DNA of 64,000 bases from Candidatus Micrarchaeota archaeon (GCA_038046605.1 JBBSVW010000073.1:196-64195), one strand, 5' to 3'; positions 2,214-37,835 are shown, counted from the stretch's first letter. The notes: generated from the letters alone by a model not told the origin. Translations and numbers: made by a program.

Positions 2214-2607
2214 TGCCAACATTTTGTTTGCCGCACTTCTCCGCAAGGGCTTGACCCGGCGCCTATTGTTCAATTCAGACATCAAATTGCTAGCGCCTGG
2301 ATTTATCCTAGCCGAGTTCATAAAGCACAGGAACTATTTGATTGGAAAGTTCGATCATAGCCCTGACGAATTCGATGAACTATCCTCTAATATACTTTCG
2401 GTAATCGAGCTTGTTCCCGACAATGAACTCGAACCCTATCTGGGCGCCTCCAAAACACTCGTTACCGACTTGAAGGATTGCCTATATATCGCGGTTGCAT
2501 TAAAGGAAAATGCCGCAATTTGGTCGAATGATGGTGGGATGAAAACGCAGCGCAGGATTAAGGTTTACACAACGGATGAACTCGCATCGGAATTTGGACT
2601 GCTATAA
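2197..2607 (+). CDS. vapC: PIN-domain ribonuclease (VapC-like toxin)
   Basis: MRIVIDANIL N-terminus with Asp6. Further acidic residues (TDLKD, SND) at PIN positions. 136 aa; translationally coupled to the upstream RHH gene. Confidence 0.75.
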   Translation: MRIVIDANILFAALLRKGLTRRLLFNSDIKLLAPGFILAEFIKHRNYLIGKFDHSPDEFDELSSNILSVIELVPDNELEPYLGASKTLVTDLKDCLYIAVALKENAAIWSNDGGMKTQRRIKVYTTDELASEFGLL

Positions 2608-2609
2608 AT

Positions 2610-2621
2610 AATGCTCCAAAC
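2610..2621. repeat. Direct repeat copy of tRNA-Glu 3' end (atgctccaaacg), att-like
   Basis: Exact 12-mer identical to 4729-4740, the tRNA-Glu 3' acceptor/T-stem region. Confidence 0.5.
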
Positions 2622-2657
2622 GAACTCGGTGGGCAAAATACTAATGCTCTAATCCAA

Positions 2658-3356
2658 TCAGTTTGAGCGCATTCCAACTTTCCTGGCTTGAATAAATCCA
2701 AAAAATGCATCGCTGTGTGCAATTGCCTCGGTTAGCGAATTGAACATAAATCCTTCCTTTTGCAGTTGCCTAAGTCCGCGCTTCGGATCCACCTTGGTTT
2801 TATGGATTGCCAAGGAGCGCTCTACTGAACCCCCCTTGGTGCCTACAATATTCCTTAGAATCCCCCTAAGCCGCATTTGCTTTTGGAATATCCTGTTAAC
2901 GGCTTCTGTTTTAGGAGATTTTGGCTCAACTCTTTTGAGAAGATCTACATTAATGGTCGCTATCCCACTTTTACGTACAGTTGCATTTACCGATTTCCAA
3001 CCTTGCGCCCATCCAAGCTCCCAATTCCGCAGATTGTGATATTCCTGCCTTACTTCCGGAGGCAACATGGAAAAAAAGCCAAGCTCCCTGGCCCGCTTCT
3101 CGATCTGCATTCGCCTAATCGTCCTTTCCGTCCTTTGCTGTTCCATTTGTCTTGTCAATACGCGAGGGTGTATTTCGAAAGTTCTTACGACTACTTCCCC
3201 TTCCCTGCGGCCTGGCCTAATTGCTACTGCTTTTACCCCGGTCGAAGTAAATTGCCCGCGATTACTTCTTTGCATTATCGTAAGCGTCCCGGTCGGGAGT
3301 GTTTCATACTTAGGTTCCCGTTGCCTTTTGCCGCTTCTTGGAATTATCCTACCCAT
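2658..3356 (-). CDS. Hypothetical basic (Arg/Lys-rich) protein, candidate cargo of an integrated element
   Basis: Longest ORF in the interval. Bounded by att-like repeats at 2610 and 3419. No recognisable catalytic motif. Confidence 0.4.
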   Translation of the reverse strand: MGRIIPRSGKRQREPKYETLPTGTLTIMQRSNRGQFTSTGVKAVAIRPGRREGEVVVRTFEIHPRVLTRQMEQQRTERTIRRMQIEKRARELGFFSMLPPEVRQEYHNLRNWELGWAQGWKSVNATVRKSGIATINVDLLKRVEPKSPKTEAVNRIFQKQMRLRGILRNIVGTKGGSVERSLAIHKTKVDPKRGLRQLQKEGFMFNSLTEAIAHSDAFFGFIQARKVGMRSN

Positions 3357-12974: not shown

Positions 12975-13772
12975 ATGATAAAGTTACCTGCAATATTTGC
13001 GCTTGCTGTTTTTTCAATTCTACTCTTTGGCTGCACCCAAACTTCTCCGGACAACACCCCCAAGGGCTCCTATTTTGAAATCGTCCGGGAGGGCAAGGCG
13101 CTTGGGGATCTTGGCTCAAAGGAATACCTCCTAACTGGCGAAGGCCTTCTTCTTCGCAAAATAAAGGTGGAATTTTCCGGTAGGCCTCCGCTCCCAACGG
13201 ACATTTCAATTTGGCGCATTCCAAAGGAGAATGCAGTTCCTCTCATGCTGCAGGTAAGGGGTGAAACAAAATCCGTATTCGAGGAGTGCGACAATTGCGC
13301 AACCTACCATCTCTTCTATGGTGATTCGACCGGAATCAAGGTTTTTGAGGCGCCGGAATACAAGACGCCCAAATTCATAACCGATCTTCCCGGAAGGATG
13401 GAAGACATCATCAAAACGGCGGCAAGGGAAGAAACGTTTTTTGCCTCCATGGTCTATTCGAAAAGGGGGATAATTTACGATTACCACATTTTTGGTGACG
13501 GAACAGTCATTTATGAGGAATTTGGCTATTCCCCCGCGACAATGGCAAATGCCAAAGTGCAAAGGATGAATACGGGGCAATTTTTCACCACAATCCCCGA
13601 TGCATTCTTTGAGGAAAAGGATTCTGGGAATGGCTGCAACCGTGACGGCTTCGATTACGGCTATGTTGAGATCGCAAAGGGCGAAAAAACCAACTTCATT
13701 TTCACCTGCGGAAATGGGCAAAACCCTTCCGATCTTGTTTTTAATCAATTGATGAATTTGGTGGAAAAATGA
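12975..13772 (+). CDS. Putative lipoprotein
   Basis: Signal peptide with LLFGC lipobox. Confidence 0.5.
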   Translation: MIKLPAIFALAVFSILLFGCTQTSPDNTPKGSYFEIVREGKALGDLGSKEYLLTGEGLLLRKIKVEFSGRPPLPTDISIWRIPKENAVPLMLQVRGETKSVFEECDNCATYHLFYGDSTGIKVFEAPEYKTPKFITDLPGRMEDIIKTAAREETFFASMVYSKRGIIYDYHIFGDGTVIYEEFGYSPATMANAKVQRMNTGQFFTTIPDAFFEEKDSGNGCNRDGFDYGYVEIAKGEKTNFIFTCGNGQNPSDLVFNQLMNLVEK

Positions 13773-13791: not shown

Positions 13792-14796
13792 GTGCAAATG
13801 AGGCAATTAACTCTCGTTTCAATTTTCCTCCTTATCGCCATTAGTTTTGTTCATGCAATCGTAATCATCCCGCCGGTTGTTTATTTTGTGACCCTATCAA
13901 TTAGCACCTTCATCTCAAGCTCGGTTGTTTCCCTCCTCCTCTTTGGCGCCCTTAAGGGCTTTGCTGATAGGAAATACTTCGGCAAATCCCTATTTGACAT
14001 ATTGCAAAAAATCAAGTCCGGAGTTTCAACATTCATCATGGCAATATCGTGCATGTTTCTTGCGCTTCTTGCCATTTATCCGATTGATTTGGAAAGCACC
14101 CTTATTGCGGCGGCCATTTCCGCGGCATTGTTCCTCCTCCTAAAATTCGTTTTTTCACTTAGGGAATTTGGCGCTTTGGGAAGCTCCAAAAAGCGATCCC
14201 TTCTAATCAGCTGGCTGGCCCTAGCCCTATTCATCGGCATCGCGTTTTCATTTTCTGCCCTCCTTTCCATCCAATCCTATCGTGTAATTACCGGATCTGG
14301 CGGCGGCTATCCCTCCCAGCAGGCCGAAAAAAGCCCCCTTGCGCCGCTTGCAGAATTGCTAACCGGTCAAGGCGCGCCATCATCTGCGGAAAGCCAAAAT
14401 TTGCTTATTGCCCCAACAGAAAGTAAAAAATCATCATCAGTGCCTTCTGAAGCGCAGGGTAGCGAATTAATTGGGGCCATTCAAGCACCTTCCCCATCCA
14501 AGGCAGCGGCATCCCCAACATCGGCTCCCGCTTCTTTGCCGGAGCAAAAAATATGGTTCATCCCCCAAAGCGCAGCGCCATGCACCATTTTTGCGGATTC
14601 TTCCGTGCAATCCTTCACTCCTTCCTATTCGTGCCTCTCGGAGGAAAACGGCAAAAGACAACGCATCTTTTGCCCCGTTTATATTTCCCACGACCAGGTA
14701 CCGATGAGAGGGGAAGTTGAATTCAAGGCAACGGGTTCATGCGTTGGGGTTGTCATGACAATTGTGGCTGAAAACGGATTTGAAAACATAAGGTAA
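13792..14796 (+). CDS. Membrane protein with S/A/P-rich linker and Cys-containing C-terminal domain
   Basis: Multiple N-terminal TM helices; low-complexity linker. Confidence 0.4.
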   Translation: MQMRQLTLVSIFLLIAISFVHAIVIIPPVVYFVTLSISTFISSSVVSLLLFGALKGFADRKYFGKSLFDILQKIKSGVSTFIMAISCMFLALLAIYPIDLESTLIAAAISAALFLLLKFVFSLREFGALGSSKKRSLLISWLALALFIGIAFSFSALLSIQSYRVITGSGGGYPSQQAEKSPLAPLAELLTGQGAPSSAESQNLLIAPTESKKSSSVPSEAQGSELIGAIQAPSPSKAAASPTSAPASLPEQKIWFIPQSAAPCTIFADSSVQSFTPSYSCLSEENGKRQRIFCPVYISHDQVPMRGEVEFKATGSCVGVVMTIVAENGFENIR

Positions 14797-14802
14797 TCGT
14801 AC

Positions 14803-16191
14803 ATGGATATCGGGCAACTTGATTTGGACCTGGCAAATGCCGCCAAACGCAATATTATCTTCGGAAAAGAGCCCCTTGTGCTTGCACGAACCGAAAATTC
14901 CGACCTCCTATCGGCATCCAAGGAATCCGGAGTTGAATTCTTTGAACGCGTTTTTTCTTCAGATGGGCCGCTTTGGCGCATGTACCAGGAAGCCCGCCTT
15001 GGCTACCTCCCGGAAAATGCCTCCCACCTCAATTTTATTGCGGGAAGGATGTATTTCCTTAGGAATGTTGAGAAAAAATACCTGCGATCCTCCGGCATGG
15101 AAAAAAATTATGCGTGGAGTGATGGAAAATTAACGGAATTTGCGCCCATCTCCCCCCAAAACGCCCTTCTGTTCATCTCATCGCCATTTGGAATGCTCTC
15201 GCAGGCGCTCGACATTTCCTTGCTTCCCCTCTATGTTGACGAAAAGATGCGCGAATTTGGCACCTTCAAGGAAAAAACCCTGCGCTATTATTCCGAGCAC
15301 AAGGGTTCAACTGCGCATCCGGTGGAACTGGCAAAAGAATCGCTGGCAAATGCCGTGCAATCGATGCACTATTCGTTTATTTCATCCCTTGCCGCCGCAT
15401 TCAAAATCAAAATGCGCAATTCCGGGCAATGGGGGGTTTGCGAAGCCGAAACGCTATTTCATCTATTGGAGAAGGGCGATATTGATGGGGCAGCAAGGCA
15501 ATACGGATTCCATTCGGTTTCCCCCTACGACATATCCGCTGCAAGATTCCACGAGGATCTCAAATATGCCAAAAGAAAGCCCGTTCCCTTCCCTCTGGAT
15601 CCCTATGCGCGCCTGCGTGAGAACGCCAAATTCCAATGCTCCCGCTACCTTGATTTGATGCGTGATGCATATGTTTCAATTGGCGAGGAATCCGGCATTG
15701 GCGGGCTTGTGTTCTACTTGAAAACCGACGAATTGGAATCCACCATAGCCGACCCCCGCAAATGGAAGGAGGAGGCGCAAAGAAGGAAAAAGGAATATGA
15801 TGGATGGGCGGGGCTGGATTTGCCTGATACCTTTGTTTATGCAAATGGTGCTTGGGTCGAATACGCGGAGAAATCGCCCTCTATAGTTGGAATTCCGGCA
15901 GGCGCCCCGATGGAGGCAAAGGGCGAAGCTGTTTTCATCAACGAGGAAAAGGATTATTCCAAAAGCGTTGGCGGTAAAATCATCATCTCAAAAACTTTCT
16001 CCCCAAACCTTGCCTCGATCTTGAAGGGTTCAGCCGGAATAATCAGCTCATCCGGAGGGGTGCTTGCACATACGGCAATAATTGCCAGGGAGATGGGAAT
16101 TCCGTGCATAGTTTCAGCTAAAGGCGTTGATGGCATAAAGGAAGGGCAAATCGTAACAATTGATGGAAAAAGTGGCAAGATTTCCATTTGA
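14803..16191 (+). CDS. Protein with C-terminal PEP-utilising-enzyme mobile (swivel phosphohistidine) domain and novel ~350-aa N-terminal region
   Basis: C-terminal GGVLAHTAIIAREMGIPCIVSAKG...GQIVTIDGKSGKI matches the PEP-utilizers phosphohistidine domain. No ATP-grasp or TIM-barrel domain seen. Confidence 0.6.
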   Translation: MDIGQLDLDLANAAKRNIIFGKEPLVLARTENSDLLSASKESGVEFFERVFSSDGPLWRMYQEARLGYLPENASHLNFIAGRMYFLRNVEKKYLRSSGMEKNYAWSDGKLTEFAPISPQNALLFISSPFGMLSQALDISLLPLYVDEKMREFGTFKEKTLRYYSEHKGSTAHPVELAKESLANAVQSMHYSFISSLAAAFKIKMRNSGQWGVCEAETLFHLLEKGDIDGAARQYGFHSVSPYDISAARFHEDLKYAKRKPVPFPLDPYARLRENAKFQCSRYLDLMRDAYVSIGEESGIGGLVFYLKTDELESTIADPRKWKEEAQRRKKEYDGWAGLDLPDTFVYANGAWVEYAEKSPSIVGIPAGAPMEAKGEAVFINEEKDYSKSVGGKIIISKTFSPNLASILKGSAGIISSSGGVLAHTAIIAREMGIPCIVSAKGVDGIKEGQIVTIDGKSGKISI

Positions 16192-16440
16192 ATTCTAAAG
16201 TGTTTTGTTTGAGCTCAAATAAGTCCCATCTGATCACTAATCTTGAATTTCCTCCTTCGCGAAACTCTTATTAATCGGCTTTTTCATATTCTCCTGATGC
16301 TATATGGAACTTGACAAGCTTGATAAGATTTTTTGGGTTGGGCTGATACTGGCAGCAATAATACTGTACTTTTGGCTTAAGTCGTTTTTCGGCTAGTTAA
16401 GCTCCCACTTAAGCATTGCAAAACCGATATATTCGCCCCT

Positions 16441-17145
16441 TTGGCTAACTATTGCGTGGTCTATATGGACATGAAACTTAACAAAAGGAAAGAAATGGGA
16501 AAGCGCAGCATAGGCATATTGCTATTGATGCTTGTTGCAATAGGCGCCCTCTATTACCAGAACGTGATCTCATTTGATGCATTTTATACTTTACAAGGGG
16601 GGCAAATCCAGCCTCTTGATGGCCCGCCCCTCCTAAGCGCTAGCTCCAATTCGCAGGCGCAAAAGGATGCCATTGCGCAGGATGCGGCAATTGGGGCGGA
16701 TCAGAAACGAATCGCAGCGCCACTTGCGGCTCCAGCCGCACTTGCAATTGAATCACAGGCGCAAACAATCACAACGGAAACCTACCGTGAAAAAGGCGCC
16801 CTTCAGGATCCGGGCCTATATTATGCGGCAATTGGGATCGTAGGCTTGCTGTTGTTCATGAGCATATTCAAGGTCTCATTCCAAAGCGCGGCGGTTTTTG
16901 ATTCGGATATTTTCAAAACCCTCTCTTCGGAAACTCGCGTTGAGATGCTCTACGCTCTCCAGGAAAGAAGGAAAACACTCTCCGAGCTGGCATTGCAGGC
17001 GGGCATTTCCCTTCCCGGTGCAAAGCAGCACCTGGCCCTTCTTGAAACCAAGGGACTGGTTAGGAAAATGGATGAAGGAAGGAAGTGGAAGTACTATGAG
17101 CTAACGGATCAGGGAAAGAGCATAATCGCCGAGCGTTTTTCCTAA
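16441..17145 (+). CDS. Membrane-anchored ArsR-family wHTH regulator
   Basis: Internal TM segments. C-terminal ETRVEMLYALQERRKTLSELALQAGISLPGAKQHLALLETKGLV (ArsR HTH). Confidence 0.5.
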   Translation: MANYCVVYMDMKLNKRKEMGKRSIGILLLMLVAIGALYYQNVISFDAFYTLQGGQIQPLDGPPLLSASSNSQAQKDAIAQDAAIGADQKRIAAPLAAPAALAIESQAQTITTETYREKGALQDPGLYYAAIGIVGLLLFMSIFKVSFQSAAVFDSDIFKTLSSETRVEMLYALQERRKTLSELALQAGISLPGAKQHLALLETKGLVRKMDEGRKWKYYELTDQGKSIIAERFS

Positions 17146-17497
17146 ATTAGGTTTGAATGGAAAAAACCCATAATTGAACTATTTTCCCTATTTGCGCCAA
17201 ACCCTAGCCGTAAAATTTCTTCCCGCCTCCATAGCCAATTTATTATTGGGAAGGTGCAAGCGCAAAGGGAAGCGTGAATTCCAGGTATATCTCAATTAGC
17301 AAAACCGCGATGAACACGGATACGAAGGTCACAATCAGCATCAATATCACTTTTGGCGCCTTCTCATACTTGTTTGCCAGCCAATCATAAAAAAAGCTCA
17401 TCAGGAAGACAAGCGGGAAAACCAGGAATGTGGCAACTACCGAAAGGAGGAATATGAGCCACCCCTGCGAGAGCATGAAGGTCAAATCTGCCATGAA

Positions 17498-18202
17498 TTG
17501 GTTATTTGCGCCCGATATTTAATACCTACTTTTAGGCGAAAAAAATGGTTTGGCAATATAAGCTCCCTTCGCGAACGTTTTATTAACAATTGCTGCATAT
17601 CCCTATTCCTTCTTGTGGTAAACATGGTCGTATTCCAGATAATCGCATTCACCGTTGCTGTCTTCATTGCCAATGTGATTTCAGGGGGGTTAATCAACAA
17701 TTATTTTGCCCTCACTCCCTCGACATTCCTAACGCAACCCTGGACAATAGTCACCTCCATATTTCTCCATGGCAATCTCATGCATATTTTCTTCAACATG
17801 TTCGGATTGTTCATGTTCGGCCCGTATTTGCAGGCAAAAATTGGCACCAAAAACTTCCTTTATTTGTATTTTGCGAGCGGAATAGTTGGCAATATGGGCT
17901 ATATGATCACTTCCGGCTTTGGCTCAGTTCCCGTCGTTGGGGCGTCAGGCGCAATTTTTGGCGTGCTTGGGACTTTGGCGATTTTGCAGCCAAACCTCAT
18001 GATTTTCGTTGGATTCATCCCAATGCCAATATGGATGGCTTCAATCTTTTGGCTTATTACTGAAACAGTATATGGCTTTGGGCAGCTCCAGGCAGGCGTT
18101 GCCAATTTCGCGCACGTCTTTGGCCTTTTTGGCGGCTTGCTATTTGGGGGTATTTTCAAGAAGCAGATAATTGCAAAAGGCGGATGGCTCCACGATGAAT
18201 GA
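17498..18202 (+). CDS. Rhomboid-family intramembrane serine protease
   Basis: GASGAIFGVLG (GxSG catalytic Ser) and downstream His in FAHVFGLFGG. 6 TM. True start may be the internal Met at 17624. Confidence 0.75.
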   Translation: MVICARYLIPTFRRKKWFGNISSLRERFINNCCISLFLLVVNMVVFQIIAFTVAVFIANVISGGLINNYFALTPSTFLTQPWTIVTSIFLHGNLMHIFFNMFGLFMFGPYLQAKIGTKNFLYLYFASGIVGNMGYMITSGFGSVPVVGASGAIFGVLGTLAILQPNLMIFVGFIPMPIWMASIFWLITETVYGFGQLQAGVANFAHVFGLFGGLLFGGIFKKQIIAKGGWLHDE

Positions 18203-18633
18203 TTTCTTTTTATCCAAGTAATGTGATCCTTCCTTTGCCTTCTGAAATAATAAAAAAAGCGGAACTCATTTGCTTTCCGGATATTTGATGAAGAGCAGCG
18301 TCAGGCCGATCACCATGAATATGAGCGGTAATGGTTCATAGGCGGGATTTGCAATACCGAGATTGTAATTGTTTCCTGCCAATTGATTTAGTATTGCCGA
18401 CGTATCTGCAGAGTTTAGGTAATAAATCGCCTTTATTCCTTCTTTGATGAATTCTGTGAATCCATAAACGAACAATCCGCTTCCAACCAATTTTCCGGCG
18501 ATTTCAGTCATATTCCATCCCATGCGATCACCTATTCAACTAGGCTTAGCCGGTATTAAAACATGACGAAGGCAGGGATGTAATTTCTAAGGGAGCGCCC
18601 CCATCGCAAGATTCATATATCGCCCTCCTCTAA

Positions 18634-20079
18634 TTGTTGTTGATTTCCATGAGCATCTTCAAGGGCTATGACATCCGCGGGGTTTACGGTGAAACGCTAA
18701 ACGAAAAGATCGCTGTGGGGATTGGCAAGGCGTTTGCAACGCTCCTGCTGAAAAAAAAGCTCCCAAACCGCAAATTATTCATCGGCAGGGACAATCGCAG
18801 ATCCTCCCCTGGGCTTAGGAACGCAATTGCAAATCCGCTCCATTTCGCGGGCTTTGACATTGTGGATCTGGGCGTGGCTTCCACTCCCCTAGTGCAATAT
18901 GCCATCTCGCGGGAAAAATGCGCCGGCGCCGTGATTGTAACTGCCTCCCACAACCCTGCACAATACAACGGCTTCAAACTATACCTGAAAAACCTTCCCC
19001 TAATGGGCGCCGATATGCATGGGATGGAGCGGATTTTCAAGAGCGGAAAGTTCCTCTCGACAGGAAAGCAGGGGCATGAGCTAAGCCGGCCAATTGAGGG
19101 GGAATATATCGGGGATGTACTTGGGAGGGTGCGCCTTTACCGCAAAATGCGCGTTGTGATAGATTCCGGGAATGGCACATGCGGCGCTGTTGCCCGCGAG
19201 CTATTGACAAGAATGGGCTGCTCCGTAATTTCCCTCTTCGAGGATATGGAAAGCGCGTTCCTCAACCATATTGCAGACCCCCATGACCCCAAAAACCTCA
19301 AATGGCTATCCGAAGAGGTCGTAAGGCAAAGGGCGGATTTAGGCATCGCCTTTGATGGCGATGGCGACCGCGCAGGCTTTGTTGACAATGCAGGAAAACC
19401 AATCAGGGAAGATGATGTTGCAATCCTGTTTTTGAGGCATGAGCTGGAAAAAGCTGGCCGGGATGGGGGCAAAAAAGGATCGATAGGCAAAAAGGTCAAG
19501 CTTCCCAAATCGAGCCGATCAATCGTCTATGATTTGCGCCTTAGCCGGGCAGTTCCCGAAGAAGTGAAAAAACTAAGAGGAAAGCCAATCATGAGCAAGG
19601 CCGGAAGGATTGCAATCAGGGAAAATCTCATCGCGCAAAAAGCGCTTTTCGGAGGGGAGGTTTCGGGCCATTACTTCTTTGCCGACCACTTTGGATTTGA
19701 TGATGGCATTTACGCCGGCGCGAAAATGTGCGAAATTGTCAGCGGGCTTGGAATGCGCCTTTCTGATGCCGTAAAATCCATTTCCCACTACCCGGCGACC
19801 CCCGAAATACGCCTCCACTGCGACAATGAAAAGAAATTCAAACTGGTTGAAAATGTGAAAAAAATCCTCCGGAAGAAATACGGCTCGAAAATCCTGACAA
19901 TTGATGGCGTCTACCTCAATTTGGAGGATGCATGGGGCCTTCTTCGCGTCTCCAATACCGAGCCTGCAATAACCCTTCGTTTCGAGGGAAAAACGAAAAA
20001 GGACTTTAAGGATGTTTATGGGATTTTTGGGAAGCTACTGAAAGGTGAGGGGATAAAACTGCCTATTCTGCCTACTTAA
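18634..20079 (+). CDS. Phosphoglucomutase/phosphomannomutase
   Basis: Active-site TASHNPAQYNG. Mg-binding DGDGDR. Four-domain length. Confidence 0.9.
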   Translation: MLLISMSIFKGYDIRGVYGETLNEKIAVGIGKAFATLLLKKKLPNRKLFIGRDNRRSSPGLRNAIANPLHFAGFDIVDLGVASTPLVQYAISREKCAGAVIVTASHNPAQYNGFKLYLKNLPLMGADMHGMERIFKSGKFLSTGKQGHELSRPIEGEYIGDVLGRVRLYRKMRVVIDSGNGTCGAVARELLTRMGCSVISLFEDMESAFLNHIADPHDPKNLKWLSEEVVRQRADLGIAFDGDGDRAGFVDNAGKPIREDDVAILFLRHELEKAGRDGGKKGSIGKKVKLPKSSRSIVYDLRLSRAVPEEVKKLRGKPIMSKAGRIAIRENLIAQKALFGGEVSGHYFFADHFGFDDGIYAGAKMCEIVSGLGMRLSDAVKSISHYPATPEIRLHCDNEKKFKLVENVKKILRKKYGSKILTIDGVYLNLEDAWGLLRVSNTEPAITLRFEGKTKKDFKDVYGIFGKLLKGEGIKLPILPT

Positions 20080-21235
20080 TTTTTCTAACTATTCCTTTAT
20101 TCGCATCCACTTCGAGCATATCGCCGTCCTTGAAAACCTTCGTTGCAATTTTTGTGCCAACAATGCAGGGTTTTCCAAATTCACGGCTCACAATTGCGGC
20201 GTGCGAGAGCAGTCCCCCTTCGTTAGTAACTATTGCGGCAGCCTTTTCCATCGCCGGAACAAATGCAGGCATCGTAGACGAGGCAACCAATATGTCCCCG
20301 TTCATTACCCTGCCTATTTCTGTTATGGAGTGGATTATAATTGCCTTTCCGATTGCATGACCCGCTGAAACCGCCATTCCCTTCAATTCTGAAATATGGG
20401 AGAATTGGCCTACAACCTTGCGTTCCTTCCGGTTATACCCCCTTAGCTCTTCCCCTTCGTATAATGTGATTTTGCCGCCCTCCCATACGATGGCGCAATC
20501 CTTATACCTATCCGCAATCCTTCTTTTGAACGCGCCATCGAAAACCACATTTTTTTCCAATGCTTCCTTAATTTCAGAACTGCGCATTTCAATTATTTCA
20601 TTTGTGGAAAGGCCAAGCCTCCTCCCGATTTCCTCGAAGAGCCGCTTGCTTTTGTGAGTAAACAAGCCGTAGGTTTCATCCCCTTCCATGGAAAGCCATG
20701 TCCAAAGCGATGCGGTCTCAATTTGTGTTTTCTCCTCCTTTGATAATAGCCAATCGCGCCTAAGTTGTTTACCGTATTCGTCTTTTTGCCTCTGATTTGC
20801 CATAAGCCCCAATTCAAGTTTCAGCCCCTTTTCCAGTATATCCCCTGCGCGTTTCCGGATGCTTTTTTCCGTGTAAGGTTCGCCGTAAAAAACATAATGC
20901 CCCAAATGGGCATAATTCGAAACGTGGGCCTTTATGGCAGAATCGACTGATTGGTCTTGCGCTTCCATCATCCCTGCAATTCCGACTAGGGATTTCCTTT
21001 CCTTCACCATGCCCGTTTTCTTTTCCATGCTGGTGAGGGCGGAGAGCAGTTCCATCTGCTTGTGGGGGTCCTTTTCCCTCTTGGAGACAATTTCAATTAT
21101 TAAATCGGGATAGAATCGGTTGATGATTATGTATTGGTAGGCCGTGACGTAAACGCGCCTTTGCACATCGCATAGCCTCTCAAATTCCAAAGCCAAGGCT
21201 GAATTGGATAATTTATTCCAATTTGTTCCTTCCAA
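20072..21235 (-). CDS. Second protein with C-terminal PEP-utilising-enzyme mobile domain and novel N-terminal region
   Basis: C-terminal GGLLSHAAIVSREFGKPCIVGTK...GDMLEVDANKGIV. N-terminal ~300 aa unrelated to ATP-grasp. Confidence 0.6.
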   Translation of the reverse strand: MEGTNWNKLSNSALALEFERLCDVQRRVYVTAYQYIIINRFYPDLIIEIVSKREKDPHKQMELLSALTSMEKKTGMVKERKSLVGIAGMMEAQDQSVDSAIKAHVSNYAHLGHYVFYGEPYTEKSIRKRAGDILEKGLKLELGLMANQRQKDEYGKQLRRDWLLSKEEKTQIETASLWTWLSMEGDETYGLFTHKSKRLFEEIGRRLGLSTNEIIEMRSSEIKEALEKNVVFDGAFKRRIADRYKDCAIVWEGGKITLYEGEELRGYNRKERKVVGQFSHISELKGMAVSAGHAIGKAIIIHSITEIGRVMNGDILVASSTMPAFVPAMEKAAAIVTNEGGLLSHAAIVSREFGKPCIVGTKIATKVFKDGDMLEVDANKGIVRKIK

Positions 21236-21296
21236 CTTGTGGCATTCCCCCTTAAACGCCTTTATCCATTCCTCCGCGTGCCTGCCGGTCTTATAG

Positions 21297-21782
21297 CTAA
21301 TCTCTTAAATATTCATACATTTTAGGCATGTTGTTAGGGTCGTCGAAAATCTTCCGTAAACGATACTTCACGCCTGCCACAGTTCTCAACGCACGGTTTG
21401 ACAAATCCCTTCGCCCTGGCTTCCAGCAAGGCTCCGCCGGGTTAAGCTCAGGTGCGTACTTCGGAAAACGAATTAAACGAAAACTCTTGCGGTGATTGTG
21501 AATGAATTCGTCCACGCGTTTTCCTTTGTGGCAAGGCCCGCTGTCAACAAACAAAGCAACCTTGTTAAAACGCCCGACGACCTGTTTGCAATGCTGAACG
21601 AACTGCTTCTGTTTTTTTCTCTTGAAAAAAGTGTAAACCAACGCCCGCTTCGTACGAGTGGCAAACACGTTCGTATACTTCCGCTGGAAGTTTATGGGCG
21701 CCGTGGGGCGGCTCCCTTTGGGAGCCCAGCCTCGCGTGACGTTGGGAAGAAGTCCAAATGAGGCCTCATCCTCGCAGCCCAC
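21297..21782 (-). CDS. IS630-family transposase DDE_3 catalytic part (OrfB)
   Basis: ALFVDSGPCH...YAPELNPAE (D...D...E, cf. YSPDLNPIE). Confidence 0.7.
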   Translation of the reverse strand: MGCEDEASFGLLPNVTRGWAPKGSRPTAPINFQRKYTNVFATRTKRALVYTFFKRKKQKQFVQHCKQVVGRFNKVALFVDSGPCHKGKRVDEFIHNHRKSFRLIRFPKYAPELNPAEPCWKPGRRDLSNRALRTVAGVKYRLRKIFDDPNNMPKMYEYLRD

Positions 21783-22356
21783 AACAAAACCTTTTTTTCG
21801 GTAGTACCGCGCGATTCGCCGCGCTTTTTTTTAAAAGCGTCCTGCTCTTCTTTGCCAGGCGATTTGTAATGCCTCGGCCTCGGTACAAGCAAGGAAAAAC
21901 CGCAGGCGATAAGCAATCGCCAGACGTGTTGCGGCGTGTACGTCACGCCGAACTTTTTCTTGATTAACGCGAGGACTTCTTTCGAAGTCCATAAACGCGA
22001 AGGAGCGCGAGGGTTGCCTTTCTCAAGAATTTTTAGCAAATGCAGGCGCTGTCTTTTCGTAAGGTGCGGCGGGCGGCCTTCTTGTTTTACTGCGCGTGCA
22101 GCCTGTTGACCTTTTTCTGCGAAACGGTGCAGAATGCTTACGACGGTTTGCTTTGACGCGGCGCACGCTTCCGCAACGGCGTCCAAGGATTTGCCTTGTT
22201 TACGGTGGATGGCGATGAGCCATCGGAGTTTGGATTTTGCGTTGGTTTCTGCCGCCATGTGTTGTTTAAGCTCTTGAAGTGAAACGTGCGGCATGAACAT
22301 TTCTCCACGAGCGAGATCCCAAGTCATACAATTATTAGGAAGTATGAATATATAAG
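21304..22356 (-). mobile_element. IS630 (Tc1/mariner)-family insertion sequence, ~1.05 kb, imperfect terminal inverted repeats cttaaatattcatac / cttatatattcatac
   Basis: Two overlapping transposase ORFs (HTH then DDE_3), IRs at both ends, locally elevated GC. Confidence 0.7.
21692..22327 (-). CDS. IS630-family transposase N-terminal part (HTH/winged-helix, OrfA)
   Basis: HTH_Tnp_IS630-like region. Overlaps OrfB by 91 nt. A7G slippery run (aaaaaaag on minus strand, ~21792-21800). Confidence 0.7.
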   Translation of the reverse strand: MTWDLARGEMFMPHVSLQELKQHMAAETNAKSKLRWLIAIHRKQGKSLDAVAEACAASKQTVVSILHRFAEKGQQAARAVKQEGRPPHLTKRQRLHLLKILEKGNPRAPSRLWTSKEVLALIKKKFGVTYTPQHVWRLLIACGFSLLVPRPRHYKSPGKEEQDAFKKKRGESRGTTEKKVLLWAARMRPHLDFFPTSREAGLPKGAAPRRP

Positions 22357-22667
22357 TTATTCGCTATTAATGAGAAAATCAGGATCCTTACCTAGCTCTA
22401 TTTTCAGTAGCGAAATCCATTCTTTGATCTCGTTTGAATCATGCCACCTTGCCCCGTTGAATTGCCTAAAGAATTTCAAATTGAAATCCACTCCTAATAG
22501 TTCCGAAAGGTAGCCTTCCTGGAACCCTTCACATGCAAGGTCCATTGCCAGAACCGCGTGGTTCCTTCCCCTCCTTGCTATTTCCTCCCAAATTGGAGCT
22601 GAATTTATCGACATAACCCACTTTTCTCCCTTAATTTTCCGGGCAATAATCTGCAATCTCCCTTAAA

Positions 22668-23390
22668 TCAATATCCCATCATTTCCAACTTCAAATTCAA
22701 TATCCCCCCAAGCATCCTAGCGGTATCGGAAAACTTAACCTTCCCCTCCTTCTTGTGGTGCCATTCAATTCCGATTTCGGAAATTGCAAACCCGTGCTTT
22801 TTTGCCTTTGCAATCAGTTCCACATCCCATTCAAAACCCTTAAGCTTGATTAGTGGCAGGAGTTTTTTTGCGGCCTTTTTCCGGATCCCCTTAAAGCCGC
22901 ATTGCGTATCATTGATTTTCAGGTTGAAAAGAAGGTTTACCAGCGCATTGAATGAACGGCTAGCAAGCTTCCTTCTTAATGGGATTTTGCCGTAAATGTC
23001 GCTATTCTTGTGCGCCCTGCTGCCAATAACCAGGTCGTATTTTTCAAGTTCGCTAAGCATTTTTGGGATCTCGCGCGGAGGGATTGCGCCATCCGCATCA
23101 TAGGTGATAATGGGATCCCCCTTTGCCAACCGGAAGCCTTCCATGAGCCCGCCTCCTTTCCCCAGCCTTTTTGGATAGTGGCAAATGCGGATTTTCCCCT
23201 CCCCGCTCCGGAATTGCCCGACTTTTTGGGCTGTCCTATCCAAGCCATCATCAATTACAAGAACCTCATATTCGCCCCTCTTGTAGCTCTTTTCAAGGAA
23301 GAAAAATAGCGCCTCAAGTGTCTCTTCTATGCGGTTCTCCTCGTTGTGCGTTGGTATTAGCATTGTGAACATTTGATTCCAGGGATACAT
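22668..23390 (-). CDS. GT2 glycosyltransferase (dolichyl-phosphate hexose synthase-like)
   Basis: Conserved YEVLVIDDG and YDADG acidic motifs. Confidence 0.8.
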   Translation of the reverse strand: MYPWNQMFTMLIPTHNEENRIEETLEALFFFLEKSYKRGEYEVLVIDDGLDRTAQKVGQFRSGEGKIRICHYPKRLGKGGGLMEGFRLAKGDPIITYDADGAIPPREIPKMLSELEKYDLVIGSRAHKNSDIYGKIPLRRKLASRSFNALVNLLFNLKINDTQCGFKGIRKKAAKKLLPLIKLKGFEWDVELIAKAKKHGFAISEIGIEWHHKKEGKVKFSDTARMLGGILNLKLEMMGY

Positions 23391-31795: not shown

Positions 31796-33064
31796 TTGAA
31801 AATTGGGATACTGACAGGCACTAGGCCTGACATCATCAAAATGGCGCCGGTCTACTGGGAGGCAAAGCGCTGGGGGCATAGGCCGGTTCTAATCCACACC
31901 TCGCAGCACTTCCCCTACCACCTATTCGAGGGCGTTTACCGGGATTTGGATTTGCCCTTCCCCCCTGATTATTTGGTGCAGTATGGCATTGTAAAGAAGC
32001 TGGGCGTGCACGTTTCAAAGGCGGCCTATCATTTGGATGAGGGCGCTAATCTAGGGCTCTCCAAAAAATTCGAGAATCTTGCAACCAAAATCACCTCAAG
32101 AAGGCCAAATCCCGCTGCAACGGTGGGGAGCATAATGCTGGAGCTTAATTCCCTTTTCCAGGGCGAACTTAAGGATCTTGACATCCTGCTTGTGCATGGC
32201 GATACCCTGACAAACATGGCCGGCGCGCTTGCTGCTTCCCTTAACCTCATTCCCGTTGGCCATGTGGAGGCGGGCCTTCGAACTTTTTCAAAAGAGCCCT
32301 TTCCCGAGCAGATAGATACGCGTGTTGCGGATGCATGCTCCGATGTATATTTTGCAGCAACGAAAACCAACGAAATCAACCTGATAAATGAGGGGTATCA
32401 AAGAGACCGGATCTTTGTTGTTGGCAATACCGTAGTTGATGCGGCGATATTTGCTGCCAGGAAAGGGAAATCGAGCCGCGCCTTTTTTGAGAAATTGGGC
32501 TTTGATTTTTCAAAAAAGCTGGTGTATTTCTCATGCCATCGCAGGGAGAGCCTCATGCATGAGCAAAGGTTTAGGGCAATTGTTTTTGCAATGGCTAATC
32601 TTAGCGATCTTGGCTACCAAGTCCTTTGGTCGGTTAGGCCCGGGACACAAGAAGCTATCAATAAATACGGCCTGAATCCCATGCTGAAGGACCATCCAAA
32701 CCTTCGCCGGGTATCTGAAATTCCAAGGTATTCCGATATTATGTTTTTCATTTCAAAATGCCATCTAGTTGCAACCGATTCCGGAAGCATGCAGGAGGAA
32801 ACTGCCGCCCTTCATGTGCCAACTGTTACCCTAAGATTTGTCACGGATAGGCCAGAGAGCGTAGATGCGGGAGTAAACATATTGGCACCGCCAACATCGG
32901 AAAAGGCAATCCGGTCGATACTTGATACTGCCTCCTCTCCCAAGGTTAATAAGCAAATGCGCCTAAAAAAGAATCCTTACGGGGATGGCAAATCCGCCTT
33001 AAAAATAATTTCGTCACTAGAAAAGCTGGAGGGCAAATTTATCCGGTGGGAGCATGGAAAATAG
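31796..33064 (+). CDS. wecB: UDP-N-acetylglucosamine 2-epimerase (non-hydrolysing, WecB-like)
   Basis: IKMAPV N-terminus; VGHVEAGLRTF motif. Confidence 0.85.
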   Translation: MKIGILTGTRPDIIKMAPVYWEAKRWGHRPVLIHTSQHFPYHLFEGVYRDLDLPFPPDYLVQYGIVKKLGVHVSKAAYHLDEGANLGLSKKFENLATKITSRRPNPAATVGSIMLELNSLFQGELKDLDILLVHGDTLTNMAGALAASLNLIPVGHVEAGLRTFSKEPFPEQIDTRVADACSDVYFAATKTNEINLINEGYQRDRIFVVGNTVVDAAIFAARKGKSSRAFFEKLGFDFSKKLVYFSCHRRESLMHEQRFRAIVFAMANLSDLGYQVLWSVRPGTQEAINKYGLNPMLKDHPNLRRVSEIPRYSDIMFFISKCHLVATDSGSMQEETAALHVPTVTLRFVTDRPESVDAGVNILAPPTSEKAIRSILDTASSPKVNKQMRLKKNPYGDGKSALKIISSLEKLEGKFIRWEHGK

Positions 33065-34535
33065 GGTGCTACTAGGGATTGCATTGTTTGCGGCAATTTC
33101 CCTAGCGGGCTTTTTCCTATCGCTCTATGCAGTTTCTGGAAATGCGGCATACTGGTGGGATGAGGCTGAATACGGCATCCTATCAAGGAGCATGACCCAA
33201 AACGGCTACTTCGGGTTTTTTGGCGGCCCAAGCTATAGGCCCCCAATGCTCCCAGTTTACATCGCAATCCTGCGCGGCCTTGTTGGGGAATTGGCCTGGA
33301 TATTGATAATTCCCCTCTTTTCCGCCCTAAGCGCCGGGGCAATTTTCATCCTTTCAAGGAAGCTGTTTGGCGAAACTGCAGCGGTCATCGCCTCAATTCT
33401 CATGCTCTCTTCTAGCCTTTACATCTTCTATTCCGGCAGGCTATTAACCGAGGTTCCGGGCATCTTCTTTAGCGCCCTATCCGCTTACTTTTTCTTCAAA
33501 GCCTTTGAGGAAAAGCGCCCGCGCGATTTCCTCCTCCTCTGCCTTTTTTCCCTGACCGCGTTCCTGGTATACTATCGGTTTTCCATGATGCTTGTTTCGA
33601 TGGCACTCTTTGCCCTATTATTCCGGACAAAGGGCATTTTGGAAAATCTTAAGCCCATTTTGGCATCCCTGGCAATCTTTTTGATTTTGCTTGCGCCCCT
33701 CCTTCTCTACAGCAACTCCTATTTCGGATCGTTCATCGGCCTATTTTCCTCCTCGTATTCCGGCCAGCAACCCGAGCCCCTTGATTGGTTTATTTCCAAC
33801 ATAGGGCACATTTTCTCAAACATGTATGTTGTGGCATTCACAATTATTGCATTTATTTACGCTCTTGCATTTGGCCAAAAGCCAATCCGTTTCCTTGCGC
33901 TTCTTACAATTATCTCCTTCATTTCCGCAAGCGTGCTTCTTAACCACAAGGAGGATAGATACCTGATGCCCCTATTTCCAATCGTATTCATGCTTATTGC
34001 CGGCTTTTGCGCCGTGGTTTTGGAAAAAGCATATTCTGCAATAAAGGGCTTTTCGTCGGCGCACATGGAAAAGGGTGCAATCTATATTTCGGCAAGCATT
34101 CTTGTCCTTTTCCTGCTCTACCAATCAACACTTGCAAATATGGGGCAGGGCCTTTCGCTTTTCGAATCGAAAAAAGCCTCATTTGGGGATGTGAAGGAAG
34201 CGGCGCTATTTGTCCGCGACTCGACCCTGCCTCAAGATGCCGTAATGTCGGATTCCGTAACCGCCATGTTTTATATGGATCGCTATAGCGCGGGCTTTTC
34301 GTCAAGCAACATATCCTATGTCCAGGGGCTTCTTGAAAGCAAAAAGCCCAAATACCTTCTCATCACTGCCTACGAATCCAGGGATGCGTACATCAACGCG
34401 ATAAATAATATGAAAAATCTTAAGGTTGCAGCAAATTCGGTGGAATATGTGTTCCTCCATCCGGAAAAATTCCAGCTTGAGAAGGTATTCCCAACTGAAA
34501 CTTCCCCATACGTGATGGTTTTCAAAATAATTTGA
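33054..34535 (+). CDS. GT-C fold membrane glycosyltransferase (ArnT/PMT-like)
   Basis: First-loop WWDEAEY acidic motif after TM1. ~12 TM. Confidence 0.55.
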   Translation: MENRVLLGIALFAAISLAGFFLSLYAVSGNAAYWWDEAEYGILSRSMTQNGYFGFFGGPSYRPPMLPVYIAILRGLVGELAWILIIPLFSALSAGAIFILSRKLFGETAAVIASILMLSSSLYIFYSGRLLTEVPGIFFSALSAYFFFKAFEEKRPRDFLLLCLFSLTAFLVYYRFSMMLVSMALFALLFRTKGILENLKPILASLAIFLILLAPLLLYSNSYFGSFIGLFSSSYSGQQPEPLDWFISNIGHIFSNMYVVAFTIIAFIYALAFGQKPIRFLALLTIISFISASVLLNHKEDRYLMPLFPIVFMLIAGFCAVVLEKAYSAIKGFSSAHMEKGAIYISASILVLFLLYQSTLANMGQGLSLFESKKASFGDVKEAALFVRDSTLPQDAVMSDSVTAMFYMDRYSAGFSSSNISYVQGLLESKKPKYLLITAYESRDAYINAINNMKNLKVAANSVEYVFLHPEKFQLEKVFPTETSPYVMVFKII

Positions 34536-34536
34536 T

Positions 34537-35847
34537 GTGATTTCCATGAAAATAGCATTCATTGGAGCGGGGTATGTGGGCCTAGTATCTGCCGTAGGCT
34601 ACGCCCTTGCTGGAAACGATAGCGTATGCATAGAAATTGATGAGCGCAAAATTGCGCAAATCAATGGCGGCAAGGCGCCAATTTATGAGGGGGGGCTTGA
34701 TGATGCGCTGTTGAAACTAACCCGCGATGGTAAACTTTTGGCAACCTCCGATTATAACGGCATAGCCTCCGCCCAGGCAATTTTCATCTGCGTTGGCACG
34801 CCTTCGGCGCAGGATGGTTCAATTGACCTGCGGTATATTGAGGATTCCTGCGCTAAAATAGCCTCAATTCTCCCAAAAATGAAGGGATACCCAATTGTCG
34901 TGGTCAAGAGCACGGTAATTCCAGGGACCACAAGCGGCCTTGTCAAGGGAATTTTGGAAAAGGGGAGCAAACTGCGCGCAGGAAGGGATTTTGGGCTTGC
35001 CATGATGCCAGAATTCCTTAGGGAGGGAACCGCACTTGCTGATTTCAAGCATCCGGATAGGATTGTCATTGGAACCATGGATGAAAAAACAAGGAAGGTG
35101 CTAATGGGTCTGCATTCAAAATTCCCAGGCGAAAAACTCATTGTCAGCCCCTCCGCGGCAGAGATGATCAAGTACGCAAGCAACTCATTTTTGGCAACCA
35201 AAATCTCATTTGTGAACCAGCTTGCGCTGCTTTGTGAAAAAACCGGCATTGATGTTGATGATGTTGCAAGGGGGATGGGACTTGACAATAGGATAGCGAT
35301 GCCATTCCTTCGAGCGGGCCCGGGTTTTGGAGGAAGCTGCTTTCCTAAGGATGTTAGGGCCCTGATGCATTTTTCAGGCAAGGAAGGGGTTGAACCCACA
35401 ATTCTCGAATCCGTAATGTTGGTAAATTCCCTGCAGCCGCTTTGGCTAATTGGGGCGGCGCAGGAAAAAATGCCCCTTAAGGGCAAAACAATTTGCATCC
35501 TTGGCCTTGCATTCAAGCCGGATACCGACGATGTGCGCGAATCGCCTGCGATCCCAGTCATTTCGCAGCTTTTGAAAATGGGATGCAAGGTTTTGGCATA
35601 CGATCCCAAAGGAATGGCAAATTTCAAAAAGCTATTTCCCAAGTTGGATTATGCCAATTCAATGGATGATGCGCTTAAAGGCGCCGATGCCTGCATGATA
35701 ATAACCGATTGGAAGGAATTCAAAAAGCCAATTGCCCATTATGAGAGGCTAATGAAAAATCCACTCATTTTGGATTCAAGAAGGATACTTGATCCAAAAA
35801 CCGCAATTACTGCAAGTTATATTTCGCTTGGAAGGGGAATTGCATGA
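34537..35847 (+). CDS. Nucleotide-sugar 6-dehydrogenase (UDP-glucose / UDP-ManNAc dehydrogenase family)
   Basis: N-terminal IGAGYVGL Rossmann motif; catalytic [10 protein letters not shown]. Confidence 0.9.
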
Positions 35848-36794
35848 AAGTATTTGTCACCGGAGGCGCGGGATTCATAGGGAGCCACGTATGCGAAAAA
35901 TTGGTATCACTTGGGCATGAGGTAATTGCAATTGACAATTTCGATCCTTACTACGGAAAGGGGCAAAAGATCGCCAATATTTCCCCCCTTAAGAAAAGCA
36001 AAAAATTCCACTTTTTGGAAATGTCCATCCTATCCCCCGAATTTCCCGCCTATCTGAAGGAATCCGGCGCGGATTCGATAATCCACCTTGCTGCAAGGCC
36101 CGGCGTTAGGCCCTCGCTTGCCGATCCATTCATTTACCAGAAAATAAATGTGGAGGGCACCCTTAGGGTTTTGGAGGCATGCCGAATTGCGGATATTTCC
36201 AATCTTGTTTCCATTTCCTCCTCATCAGTTTATGGAAATTGCAAAACCAAGCCCTGGAAGGAAACTGATACCCCCCTTCCGGCTTCCCCCTATGGCGCAT
36301 CCAAGCTTGCCGGTGAGGCCTACGTCCGCGCTTACCACGAACTATATTCCATTTCCGCCAAATGCCTTAGGTATTTTTCAGTATACGGTGAAAGGCAGCG
36401 GCCCGACCTTGCACTTGCGCTCTTCGCCAATGCAATGATGGAAAATAAGCCCATCAGGATGTTTGGGGATGGCTCATCTCTTAGGGATTACACCTATATC
36501 TCCGATGCCGTCGATGGCACGATTTCAGCCCTTTTGGCAAATCCGGATTTCGAGATTTTCAATATAGGCAATTCAAAGCCAGTTGCGCTCAAGCGTTTAA
36601 TTAACCTACTGGAGCAAAATCTTGGAGTGAGCGCCAAAATTGAGCGCCTCCCGGAGCAAAAGGGCGATTTGTCGGATACGTATGCTGACATTAGCAAGGC
36701 AAAAAAAATGCTGAATTATTCCCCAAAGGTTGGAATTGAATGGGGGGTAAAAAAATACATCGAGTGGAGGAAAAAGGCATGGATTGGGAAGTGA
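35844..36794 (+). CDS. NAD-dependent nucleotide-sugar epimerase/dehydratase (SDR-extended)
   Basis: [11 protein letters not shown]; YGASKLAGE (YxxxK). Confidence 0.85.
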
Positions 36795-36890
36795 TTAATG
36801 CATTTCGTAGTCATATTGCGCAAATTGCAAAAAATCCAGGCTTACCATTTGAATTGCAATCCAACGGATGAAAAAGGCGAAAAATCAAAT

Positions 36891-37835
36891 ATGTTAATTT
36901 CAATAGTAATCCCGGTATTCAACGAAAAGGAAAACATCCAACCCCTGGTTGCAGAAATTGGCAAAACAGCTTTTTCCCTTCGTAAAAAGGGCATGCAAAC
37001 CGAGCTGATCCTTGTGGATGATGGCAGCACCGATGGCACATTCAAGGAAATCCAAAGGCTAAAAGTGCAATCCCCAAATATCCGGGCCATAAGATTCCGG
37101 AGGAATTTTGGCCAGACGGCGGCCTTTGATGCGGGTTTTGCGCAGGCCAAGGGCGAGGTTGTAATCACAATGGATGGCGATTTGCAAAACGATCCTGCCG
37201 ACATCCCCTTGCTTTTAGATAAACTGAACGAAGGGTATGATGTTGTTTCGGGATGGCGCTTTGAACGCAAGGACGCCGCCTTTTCAAAAAAGCTCCCCTC
37301 ATTGTTTTCGAACTATCTTGCAAGGTCCCTAACAGGCCTTAAGCTGCATGATTTCGGCTGCTCGCTTAAGGCATACCGACGCGAAGCACTCAAGGATCTG
37401 CGCCTATTTGGCGAAATGCATCGTTTCGTTCCTGCAATCCTGTTTACAAAGGGCTTTCGGATCGCGGAGGTAAAAGTCCGCCACAGGCCCCGGAAATTTG
37501 GCAAAACCAAGTATAATTTTACGCGCCTGCTAAAGGGCTTCCTCGACTTGCTCTACATCAAGTTCTGGTCCTCCTTTTCCACAAGGCCCCTTCACCTATT
37601 TGGCCTCATGGGCTTTTCCATGCTGTTCGTATCCGGCCTGATTGCGGCATACAAGTTTCTTGCATTGGTGTTCTTTTCGCAGCCAATCGAGGTCACCCCC
37701 GCACTATTGTTATCAGTTTTGCTTGCAATCCTTGGCTTATTGTTCATAATGTTTGGCTTCCTTGGCGAGGTGCAGGTTAGGACCTACTACAACACTTCTA
37801 AGGAGCACGAATATGAAATCGAAAGGAAAATATGA
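36891..37835 (+). CDS. GT2 polyprenol-phosphate hexosyltransferase (DPM1/GtrB-like) with C-terminal TM helices
   Basis: ISIVIPVFNE, VDDGSTDGT, MDGDLQND motifs. Two C-terminal TMs. Confidence 0.8.
   Translation: MLISIVIPVFNEKENIQPLVAEIGKTAFSLRKKGMQTELILVDDGSTDGTFKEIQRLKVQSPNIRAIRFRRNFGQTAAFDAGFAQAKGEVVITMDGDLQNDPADIPLLLDKLNEGYDVVSGWRFERKDAAFSKKLPSLFSNYLARSLTGLKLHDFGCSLKAYRREALKDLRLFGEMHRFVPAILFTKGFRIAEVKVRHRPRKFGKTKYNFTRLLKGFLDLLYIKFWSSFSTRPLHLFGLMGFSMLFVSGLIAAYKFLALVFFSQPIEVTPALLLSVLLAILGLLFIMFGFLGEVQVRTYYNTSKEHEYEIERKI

Follow-up and report, generated by a model that had tools for sequence, protein, structure and literature searches.

In a 64,000-nt stretch of DNA from a metagenome-assembled genome (MAG) of Candidatus Micrarchaeota, a DPANN archaeon of Hainich groundwater (hereafter the window), two genes probably encode the H-type half of a two-component dikinase of the rifampin phosphotransferase (RPH, or Rph) superfamily; the probability that we assign to this interpretation is about 0.62. 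The H-type half unites a substrate-binding domain with a phosphohistidine swivel domain, and the ATP-grasp domain would act in trans from a separate protein. Gene 1 (14803-16191, plus strand, 462 aa) is intact and linked to genes for envelope proteins, and gene 2 (minus strand) is broken by an insertion sequence (IS). Both had been pointed out in an earlier note on this DNA, whose open reading frames (ORFs) at 14803-16191 (+), 18634-20079 (+; phosphoglucomutase/phosphomannomutase, PGM/PMM) and 20072-21235 (-; 387 aa) were all recovered. An NCBI/ENA protein of Candidatus Micrarchaeota shares 100% identity with the gene 1 product, and two independent contigs, L172 and L173, agree with the window at 99.975-100% identity.

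Both proteins end in a PEP-utilizers mobile domain (PF00391, 68.3 bits for gene 1 and 90.0 bits for gene 2, with a gathering score of 23.1 bits). According to Pfam and NCBIfam, the ATP-grasp (PPDK_N) and the PEP-utilizers_C TIM-barrel domains are absent from both proteins, and a custom ATP-grasp hidden Markov model (HMM) detected no ATP-grasp in either polypeptide. To this extent the earlier description stands, but its label "swivel-domain-only" is inaccurate: in each protein, about 350 aa form a substrate-binding domain of the Rph type. AlphaFold2 models were obtained from family alignments for gene 1 (pLDDT 90.3, pTM 0.88) and for P0052, the closest intact homologue of gene 2 (498 aa, 74% identity; pLDDT 91.7, pTM 0.89). 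Both models are formed mostly by long helices with few hairpins, that is, they are helical and not alpha/beta. In Foldseek comparisons the top six matches were all entries of Rph-Lm (E = 2e-14 to 1e-12, TM 0.57), the next one having E = 7e-6. The Rph match spans about 350 residues, comprising the substrate-binding and swivel domains, at 14-17% sequence identity, so that a substrate domain of the rifampin (RIF)-binding type is placed directly before the swivel, as in H-type subunits. Neither the fold comparison nor the ATP-grasp HMM gave a match to an ATP-grasp; therefore the N-terminal regions are not PPDK_N domains, and the refutation that the earlier note had named for its proposal (a match of these regions to PPDK_N) did not come about.

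With respect to sequence, homology with Rph reaches about 100 residues upstream of the swivel. In profile alignments, positions 269-464 of gene 1 correspond to Rph-Lm residues 662-866 and positions 314-487 of the gene 2 family to Rph residues 700-865, and no alignment to Rph was obtained with sequence profiles upstream of residue ~660. The structure comparison and the profile matches to Rph residues 662-866 agree with the proposed likeness to the C-terminal part of Rph or to split phosphotransfer systems. RPH-Lm is composed of an ATP-grasp (residues 1-314), a RIF-binding domain as well as a swivel (residues 767-865) (Stogios et al., PMC4844700). This enzyme (PDB 5HV1/5FBS) is the best structural match, but it is a single chain whose N-terminal ATP-grasp is absent in the window proteins, in which RIF-binding signatures are also undetectable.

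Gene 1 retains the equivalents of R666, E667 and K670 of RPH-Lm together with the catalytic His. The Rph sequence REYPK falls opposite RENAK in gene 1 (R272-E273-N-A-K276, encoded at 15616-15630 on the plus strand), and R272, E273 and K276 are invariant in the 19 members of the gene 1 family. This block corresponds to the catalytic Arg-Glu/Lys of the RPH substrate-binding domain, which is kept even in distant clades (PMC4844700). The gene 1 swivel (15973-16176) contains the predicted phospho-acceptor His423 (codon 16069-16071) in the loop S415-x-x-G-G-x-L-x-H423, where S415, G418, L421 and H423 are present in 19/19 members and G419 in 18/19. In gene 2, the swivel is located at 20302-20093 and the His codon at 20203-20201, the loop of the 387-aa ORF being T337..GG..H345. 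The consensus in this family is T-x-x-G-G-x-x-x-H (T in 28 of 30 sequences, G-G and His in all of them). The regulatory Thr two residues ahead of the His is absent from both families. At the place of the RPH R-E block, the gene 2 family shows D (29/30) and E (27/30), encoded in gene 2 at 20680-20675, with no aligned Lys.

The two proteins, presented in the earlier note as paralogues, are indeed so at the superfamily level, but they belong to two separate families whose active-site motifs differ (R-E-x-x-K versus D-E). The absence of mutual similarity between their N-terminal regions was corroborated (hhalign of the N-domains alone, probability 0.5%), homology between both families being limited to the last ~175 residues (profile alignment, probability 99.4%). 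The gene 1 family is rare, with 26 clusters in an index of 5.8 billion proteins. A phmmer search of 1.84 billion representatives with the gene 2 N-domain alone and filters off yielded 138 clusters (57 at E <= 1e-10), nearly all of 460-500 aa. Both can be considered new, sequence-distinct families of a known enzyme type in DPANN archaea and in bacteria of the Candidate Phyla Radiation (CPR).

The two-component RPH-like dikinase subfamily comprises HpeHI (hydroxyphenylethanone kinase), CreHI (4-methylbenzyl phosphate synthase) and PpsAB (phenylphosphate synthase) (Dexter et al. 2025, PMC12167813). HpeH consists of a RIF-binding-like domain and a swivel, HpeI is the ATP-grasp protein, both are needed for ATP-dependent phosphorylation, and mutation of the His abolishes activity (PMC12167813). 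Thus, the split system that the earlier note envisaged matches the two genes in architecture, although this architecture is already present in the literature (PMC12167813). Like HpeH, CreH and PpsA, the window proteins join an Rph-type substrate domain to a swivel His at the C-terminus and lack an ATP-grasp of their own, which is predicted to reside in another polypeptide; they share the T/SxxGGxxxH loop without the regulatory Thr, and in gene 2 relatives the ATP-grasp gene is often adjacent. However, they are shorter (~460-490 aa versus ~600 aa for PRK08296-type models), and sequence similarity is confined to the last ~180 residues. They belong to DPANN/CPR families with neither an aromatic-catabolism context nor an adjacent ATP-grasp in the window. 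In addition, gene 1 is coupled to two envelope proteins, and the gene 2 family has D-E in place of R-E..K and occurs in arrays of up to 10 paralogues.

By analogy with RPH, HpeHI, CreHI and PpsAB, the separate ATP-grasp protein would bind ATP and the swivel His (His423 in gene 1) would take the beta-phosphate, with AMP and inorganic phosphate leaving. The swivel would then swing back to its own substrate-binding domain, where a hydroxyl of the substrate would be phosphorylated. Such a phosphohistidine shuttle, with its dikinase chemistry and its charging by an ATP-grasp in trans, is inferred from homology, gene fusions and synteny, and any statement on the substrate is equally indirect. The domain identities, the fold relationship, the conservation of the motifs, the IS disruption, the synteny patterns and the fused or adjacent ATP-grasps of relatives are direct observations.

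The fusions are found among gene 1 relatives. P0019, P0021 and P0022 (~800 aa) are "Rosetta-stone" proteins in which a gene 1-like sequence is joined to a C-terminal PPDK_N, and their order (substrate domain, swivel, ATP-grasp) is permuted with respect to Rph. The swivel also precedes the ATP-grasp in proteins encoded at L120 8634-11000 and L160 8726-11107; since these fall outside the gene 1 family, the permuted order may have arisen more than once. In alpha-glucan, water dikinase (GWD) of plants, the substrate-binding domain is followed by the phosphohistidine domain and by a C-terminal nucleotide-binding domain. Compared by domain order alone, GWD matches P0019, P0021 and P0022, and its dedicated phosphatases recall the HAD genes that are found beside gene 2-type arrays, but its substrate part is formed by carbohydrate-binding modules and not by an Rph-like helical domain. 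The His of potato GWD is His992 (PMC12892837). Stand-alone PPDK_N proteins of ~310 aa are abundant in Woesearchaeota, CPR and other lineages, and examples of the operon layouts observed are swivel-HAD-grasp (L010) and grasp-swivel-swivel-HAD (L011).

Gene 1 closes a three-gene module whose two upstream members, both encoding envelope proteins, had been overlooked in the earlier note. The first gene (12975-13772, plus strand) encodes a 265-aa lipobox lipoprotein with an LFGC signal and conserved cysteines and has no Pfam match. The second (13792-14796, plus strand) encodes a 334-aa multi-pass membrane protein, which has a Ser/Pro-rich linker and, at the C-terminus, a domain containing Cys; the gene ends 7 bp before gene 1, and no Pfam match was above the cut-off. 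The order lipoprotein, membrane protein, gene 1 is conserved in all eight independent loci with enough upstream sequence (the window, L001, L003, L005, which carries the fused form, L093, L094, L095 and L096), and L092 adds a partial case. The genes are tightly spaced or overlapping, and the ATP-grasp-fused relatives keep both upstream envelope genes. Gene 1 is terminal in an obligately conserved envelope module; therefore its substrate or its regulation is probably tied to the cell envelope or to an imported compound. This module is the most unusual feature of the window and has no counterpart among characterised dikinases.

Two further observations concern this region. In L172 the membrane-protein gene (2400-3245) was called at 281 aa, instead of the 334 aa of the window gene. 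Since only three mismatches separate the sequences over 12 kb, this is probably a population variant that truncates the Cys-containing C-terminal domain. The gene that immediately follows gene 1 (window 16441-17145) encodes a protein of 234 aa, in which an N-terminal region that is either membrane-anchored or secreted is combined with a winged helix of the ArsR type at the C-terminus (HTH_5, HVO_A0261_N); a gene of the same type stands beside the equivalent block in L007, a contig of another Micrarchaeota.

Gene 2 had been taken as a complete gene at 20072-21235, but this ORF is the 3' part of a gene of ~489 aa that is broken at about codon 92 by an IS630-like element of 1073 bp. All its parts lie on the minus strand. 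The 3' fragment (20072-21292) covers residues ~92-489 of the ancestral protein, the mechanically called 387-aa ORF starting at a TTG at 21235. The IS occupies 21294-22366, and the 5' fragment (22367-22614) has a probable ATG at 22614 and about 83 codons, the mechanical ORF at 22357-22656 entering the IS and stopping there. When P0052 was used as the query in tblastn, its residues 92-495 were found at 21292-20081 and its residues 18-92 at 22590-22366 (76% identity). The element shows imperfect terminal inverted repeats of 25 nt (21294-21318 and 22342-22366) and is flanked by TAA direct repeats (21291-21293 and 22367-22369). Excision of the IS and one repeat restores '...DFLIKTGRHAEEW...', the P0052 counterpart of which is '...GYLIKVGSIAEKW...'. 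The restored junction reads '...DPDFLIKTGRHAEEW...', which agrees with '...DPGYLIKVGSIAEKW...' of P0052 on both sides of the insertion site, and the resulting product has ~489 aa from ATG 22614.

The DDE_3 transposase with N-terminal helix-turn-helix (HTH) domains, the length of ~1.1 kb, the terminal inverted repeats, the duplicated TA-containing target and the restoration of the host ORF upon excision place the element in the IS630 family. It differs from IS630 elements in that the duplicated repeat is TAA and the transposase is split into two overlapping frames, which correspond to the HTH part (21692-22327; HTH_33/HTH_32) and the DDE_3 part (21297-21782; PF13358, 76 bits). A-runs are located in or just upstream of the frame overlap; either decay or a programmed frameshift could account for the two frames. 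The IS occurs only once in the window. The insertion is real: L172, an independent assembly, contains it too, in a gap-free alignment (99.975% identity over 12,012 bp), and an assembly artefact is thereby ruled out. In the P0052 model, the first ~100 residues contribute strands and helices to the N-domain, and the 387-aa ORF is devoid of them. Most likely, gene 2 is inactivated in this genome and the 387-aa remnant is non-functional.

The relatives of gene 2 provide further information about the system. Annotation of approximately 170 loci with custom HMMs gave 57 independent ones with stand-alone gene 2-type ORFs. The locus frequencies given here are lower bounds, as short contigs are numerous. 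At least three tandem paralogues are present in 29 of the 57 loci, with a maximum of 10 per locus. For instance, a Magasanikbacteria contig (L012) carries six swivel paralogues consecutively. One stand-alone ATP-grasp was found in 18/57 loci and more than one in none. Twelve of the 22 grasp-swivel pairs lie within 60 bp of each other, 11 of these 12 on the same strand. HAD hydrolases are present in 9 of the 57 loci. The identity among array paralogues is 20-24% in the N-domain and 50-57% in the swivel, as would be expected if a common charging subunit served substrate sites that have diversified.

The largest arrays of "helical domain + swivel" proteins, with 7-10 paralogues, are those of L013, L020, L023, L027, L029, L041, L152 and L163, which are CPR and DPANN contigs. 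Their N-domains are ~20% identical and their swivels ~55%; as a rule no more than one stand-alone PPDK_N accompanies them, and a HAD hydrolase is present in some. In the literature searched, no description of the CPR/DPANN arrays was found, only generic "rph" and "phenylphosphate synthase" annotations. In addition, long uninterrupted frames of about 2000-3800 codons occur in contigs of Woesearchaeota, Nanoarchaeota and unclassified MAGs (L034 2153-13456, L084 1-8811, L066 4616-10702 and L062 7943-13933). They contain the gene 2-type N-domain and the swivel and, except for L084, also an ATP-grasp match, and may represent fusions of several modules of this system.

A broader and more tentative proposal, which we hold as a possibility well short of even odds, is that CPR and DPANN organisms run a system of "one charger, many acceptors", the gene 1 module being its separate envelope-coupled branch. 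In this scheme, one stand-alone ATP-grasp subunit would charge many strongly divergent substrate-binding paralogues (as many as ~10 in an array, with N-domains ~20% identical) at their conserved swivel His. Each paralogue would phosphorylate a different small molecule or glycan, and HAD phosphatases would reverse or complete the step. The gene 1 kinase subunit would work with its dedicated membrane protein and lipoprotein, for example by phosphorylating an imported or envelope-bound compound. If so, these organisms of otherwise minimal metabolism could possess a battery for scavenging, detoxification or host interaction, as well as a combination of kinase, membrane protein and lipoprotein that is not known for any dikinase.

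Several observations weigh against a two-component dikinase charged in trans. There is no ATP-grasp gene in the 64-kb window. A search of its six frames with an HMM of 60 stand-alone PPDK_N sequences and filters off gave a best E value of 3.5, and tblastn with the fused homologues was also negative; therefore the partner kinase would lie outside the window, as the earlier note had indicated. No ATP-grasp was found within 10 kb on either side in the six loci counted for the split gene 1 family, nor at the Micrarchaeota gene 2-type loci examined (L007, L025 and L083), so that a trans partner in this genome is assumed and not seen. The RPH catalytic block is incomplete in the gene 2 family, which has neither its Arg nor its Lys. 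The PpsA-like PRK08296 models of NCBIfam gave at best 55.4 bits with gene 1 and 106.6 bits with gene 2, restricted to the swivel, versus a cut-off of 578. Finally, the link of gene 1 to two envelope proteins is unmatched in any characterised member.

The absence of an ATP-grasp in the window or beside any split gene 1 homologue would agree with an ATP-independent phosphotransferase, in which the swivel His would move a phosphoryl group from a phosphorylated metabolite to another hydroxyl, here maybe between sugar phosphates. Such a transfer has a precedent, since HpeH alone moved phosphate from 4-phosphoacetophenone to acetovanillone (PMC12167813), and PGM/PMM, GT2 and glycan-cluster genes are located nearby. 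However, gene 1-like sequences fused to an ATP-grasp do exist and are preceded by the same two upstream genes, an ATP-grasp often directly adjoins gene 2-type genes, and PGM is present in only 3/57 loci. For these reasons we consider this explanation unlikely, although it fares better than the other alternatives.

Still less probable is a phosphorelay or regulatory role in the style of enzyme I of the phosphotransferase system (PTS) or of PtsP. The strict coupling of gene 1 to a membrane protein and a lipoprotein (8/8 loci) would be in line with such a role, but matches to enzyme I are restricted to the ~100-residue swivel, whereas the whole-protein match is Rph and the substrate-side R-E-x-x-K is invariant, and neither HPr-like nor EII-like genes were detected among the annotated neighbours. 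We regard it as very improbable that the proteins are split orthologues of true Rph that inactivate rifamycin or other antibiotics. Although Rph is the best structural match and the resistance genes tallied in CPR genomes have included Rph-like ones (PMC8651080), identity to Rph is only 14-17%, the N-domain sequences could not be aligned with Rph upstream of residue ~660, and the scores with the specific model NF041857 (RIF_Ptrans_rph) are 45.7 and 74.9 bits, far from its cut-off of 999. Besides, distant RPH clades lose RIF-binding residues, and a tested protein of clade N gave no RIF resistance (PMC4844700).

The remaining alternative, that these are mis-called, truncated or degenerate genes of ordinary phosphoenolpyruvate (PEP) synthase or pyruvate phosphate dikinase (PPDK), draws on database names ("PEP-utilizing enzyme", "phosphoenolpyruvate synthase/pyruvate phosphate dikinase") and on best NCBIfam matches named PEP synthase, but is refuted by the domain and fold analyses: PpsA/PPDK models match the swivel only, neither a same-chain ATP-grasp nor a TIM barrel is present, a length of ~460-500 aa is the norm across hundreds of homologues, and the canonical PpsA-like genes of other Micrarchaeota (L058, L064 and L082) are clearly distinct. 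The swivel is homologous to that of PEP synthase and PPDK, and the His-mediated dikinase chemistry is presumably the same, but the second substrate domain folds differently.

The interpretation as H-type subunits of two-component dikinases has several implications. The RPH-like dikinases of this kind characterised so far (HpeHI, CreHI and PpsAB) act only on phenolic substrates of aromatic catabolism. The evidence presented here indicates that the split architecture occurs widely among the ultra-small CPR bacteria and DPANN archaea, where it is strongly expanded. The gene content of these host-dependent organisms consists mostly of unknowns; hence, families that could activate or detoxify substrates are of interest. 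Gene 1 represents a rare DPANN family with an invariant catalytic block and an obligate envelope link, whose probable ATP-grasp partner is indicated by its fused relatives. Annotation is also affected. When the metabolism of DPANN archaea is reconstructed, labels such as "PEP synthase" or "PEP-utilizing enzyme" would cause gluconeogenesis to be called too often. A study of DPANN MAGs annotated "phenylphosphate synthase" but found no carboxylase (PMC8091004), and a survey of the CPR resistome counts "rph" genes (PMC8651080); both annotations may be matches to split RPH-like families. In that case, the former suggest a degradation of aromatics of which these genomes are probably not capable, and the latter inflate resistome counts.

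Profile scans of the 64-kb window revealed no additional swivel domains and no HAD gene. Both gene families are present together in another Micrarchaeota genome (GCA_018819225.1), to which none of the best 120 ATP-grasp matches could be assigned. The PGM/PMM gene (18634-20079, plus strand) encodes a 481-aa protein with all four PGM_PMM domains. The earlier note had it bracketed by the two swivel genes, which describes gene 2 well, convergent with it and overlapping by 8 bp, but gene 1 only loosely, since it is 2.4 kb away with four other ORFs in between. The convergent overlap is repeated in the closest relative (L008), and L007 repeats a block composed of a swivel protein, HTH, rhomboid, PGM, further genes and gene 2. 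On the left side of this L007 block, the swivel protein represents a third paralogue, similar to gene 2, and a HAD gene stands next to it. Since PGM stands beside gene 2-type genes in only 3 of the 57 independent loci, its adjacency in L008 and proximity in L007 are treated as local synteny of the lineage, PGM/PMM is rejected as a functional partner, and its neighbourhood is at best a weak hint of sugar-related substrates.

A GT2 glycosyltransferase gene (22668-23390) is located directly past the 5' fragment of gene 2, and a glycan-synthesis cluster at 31796-37835 encodes a UDP-GlcNAc 2-epimerase, a PMT_2-type glycosyltransferase, a UDP-sugar dehydrogenase, an NAD-epimerase and a GT2. GT2 and PMT-like genes also surround the gene 2 homologue of L007. 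Two small hydrophobic ORFs on the minus strand (17243-17494, 83 aa, and 18266-18523, 85 aa) are interspersed among the HTH, rhomboid and PGM genes. The two are called as genes in L172 as well, and the equivalent position in L007 is occupied by a gene of 84 aa.

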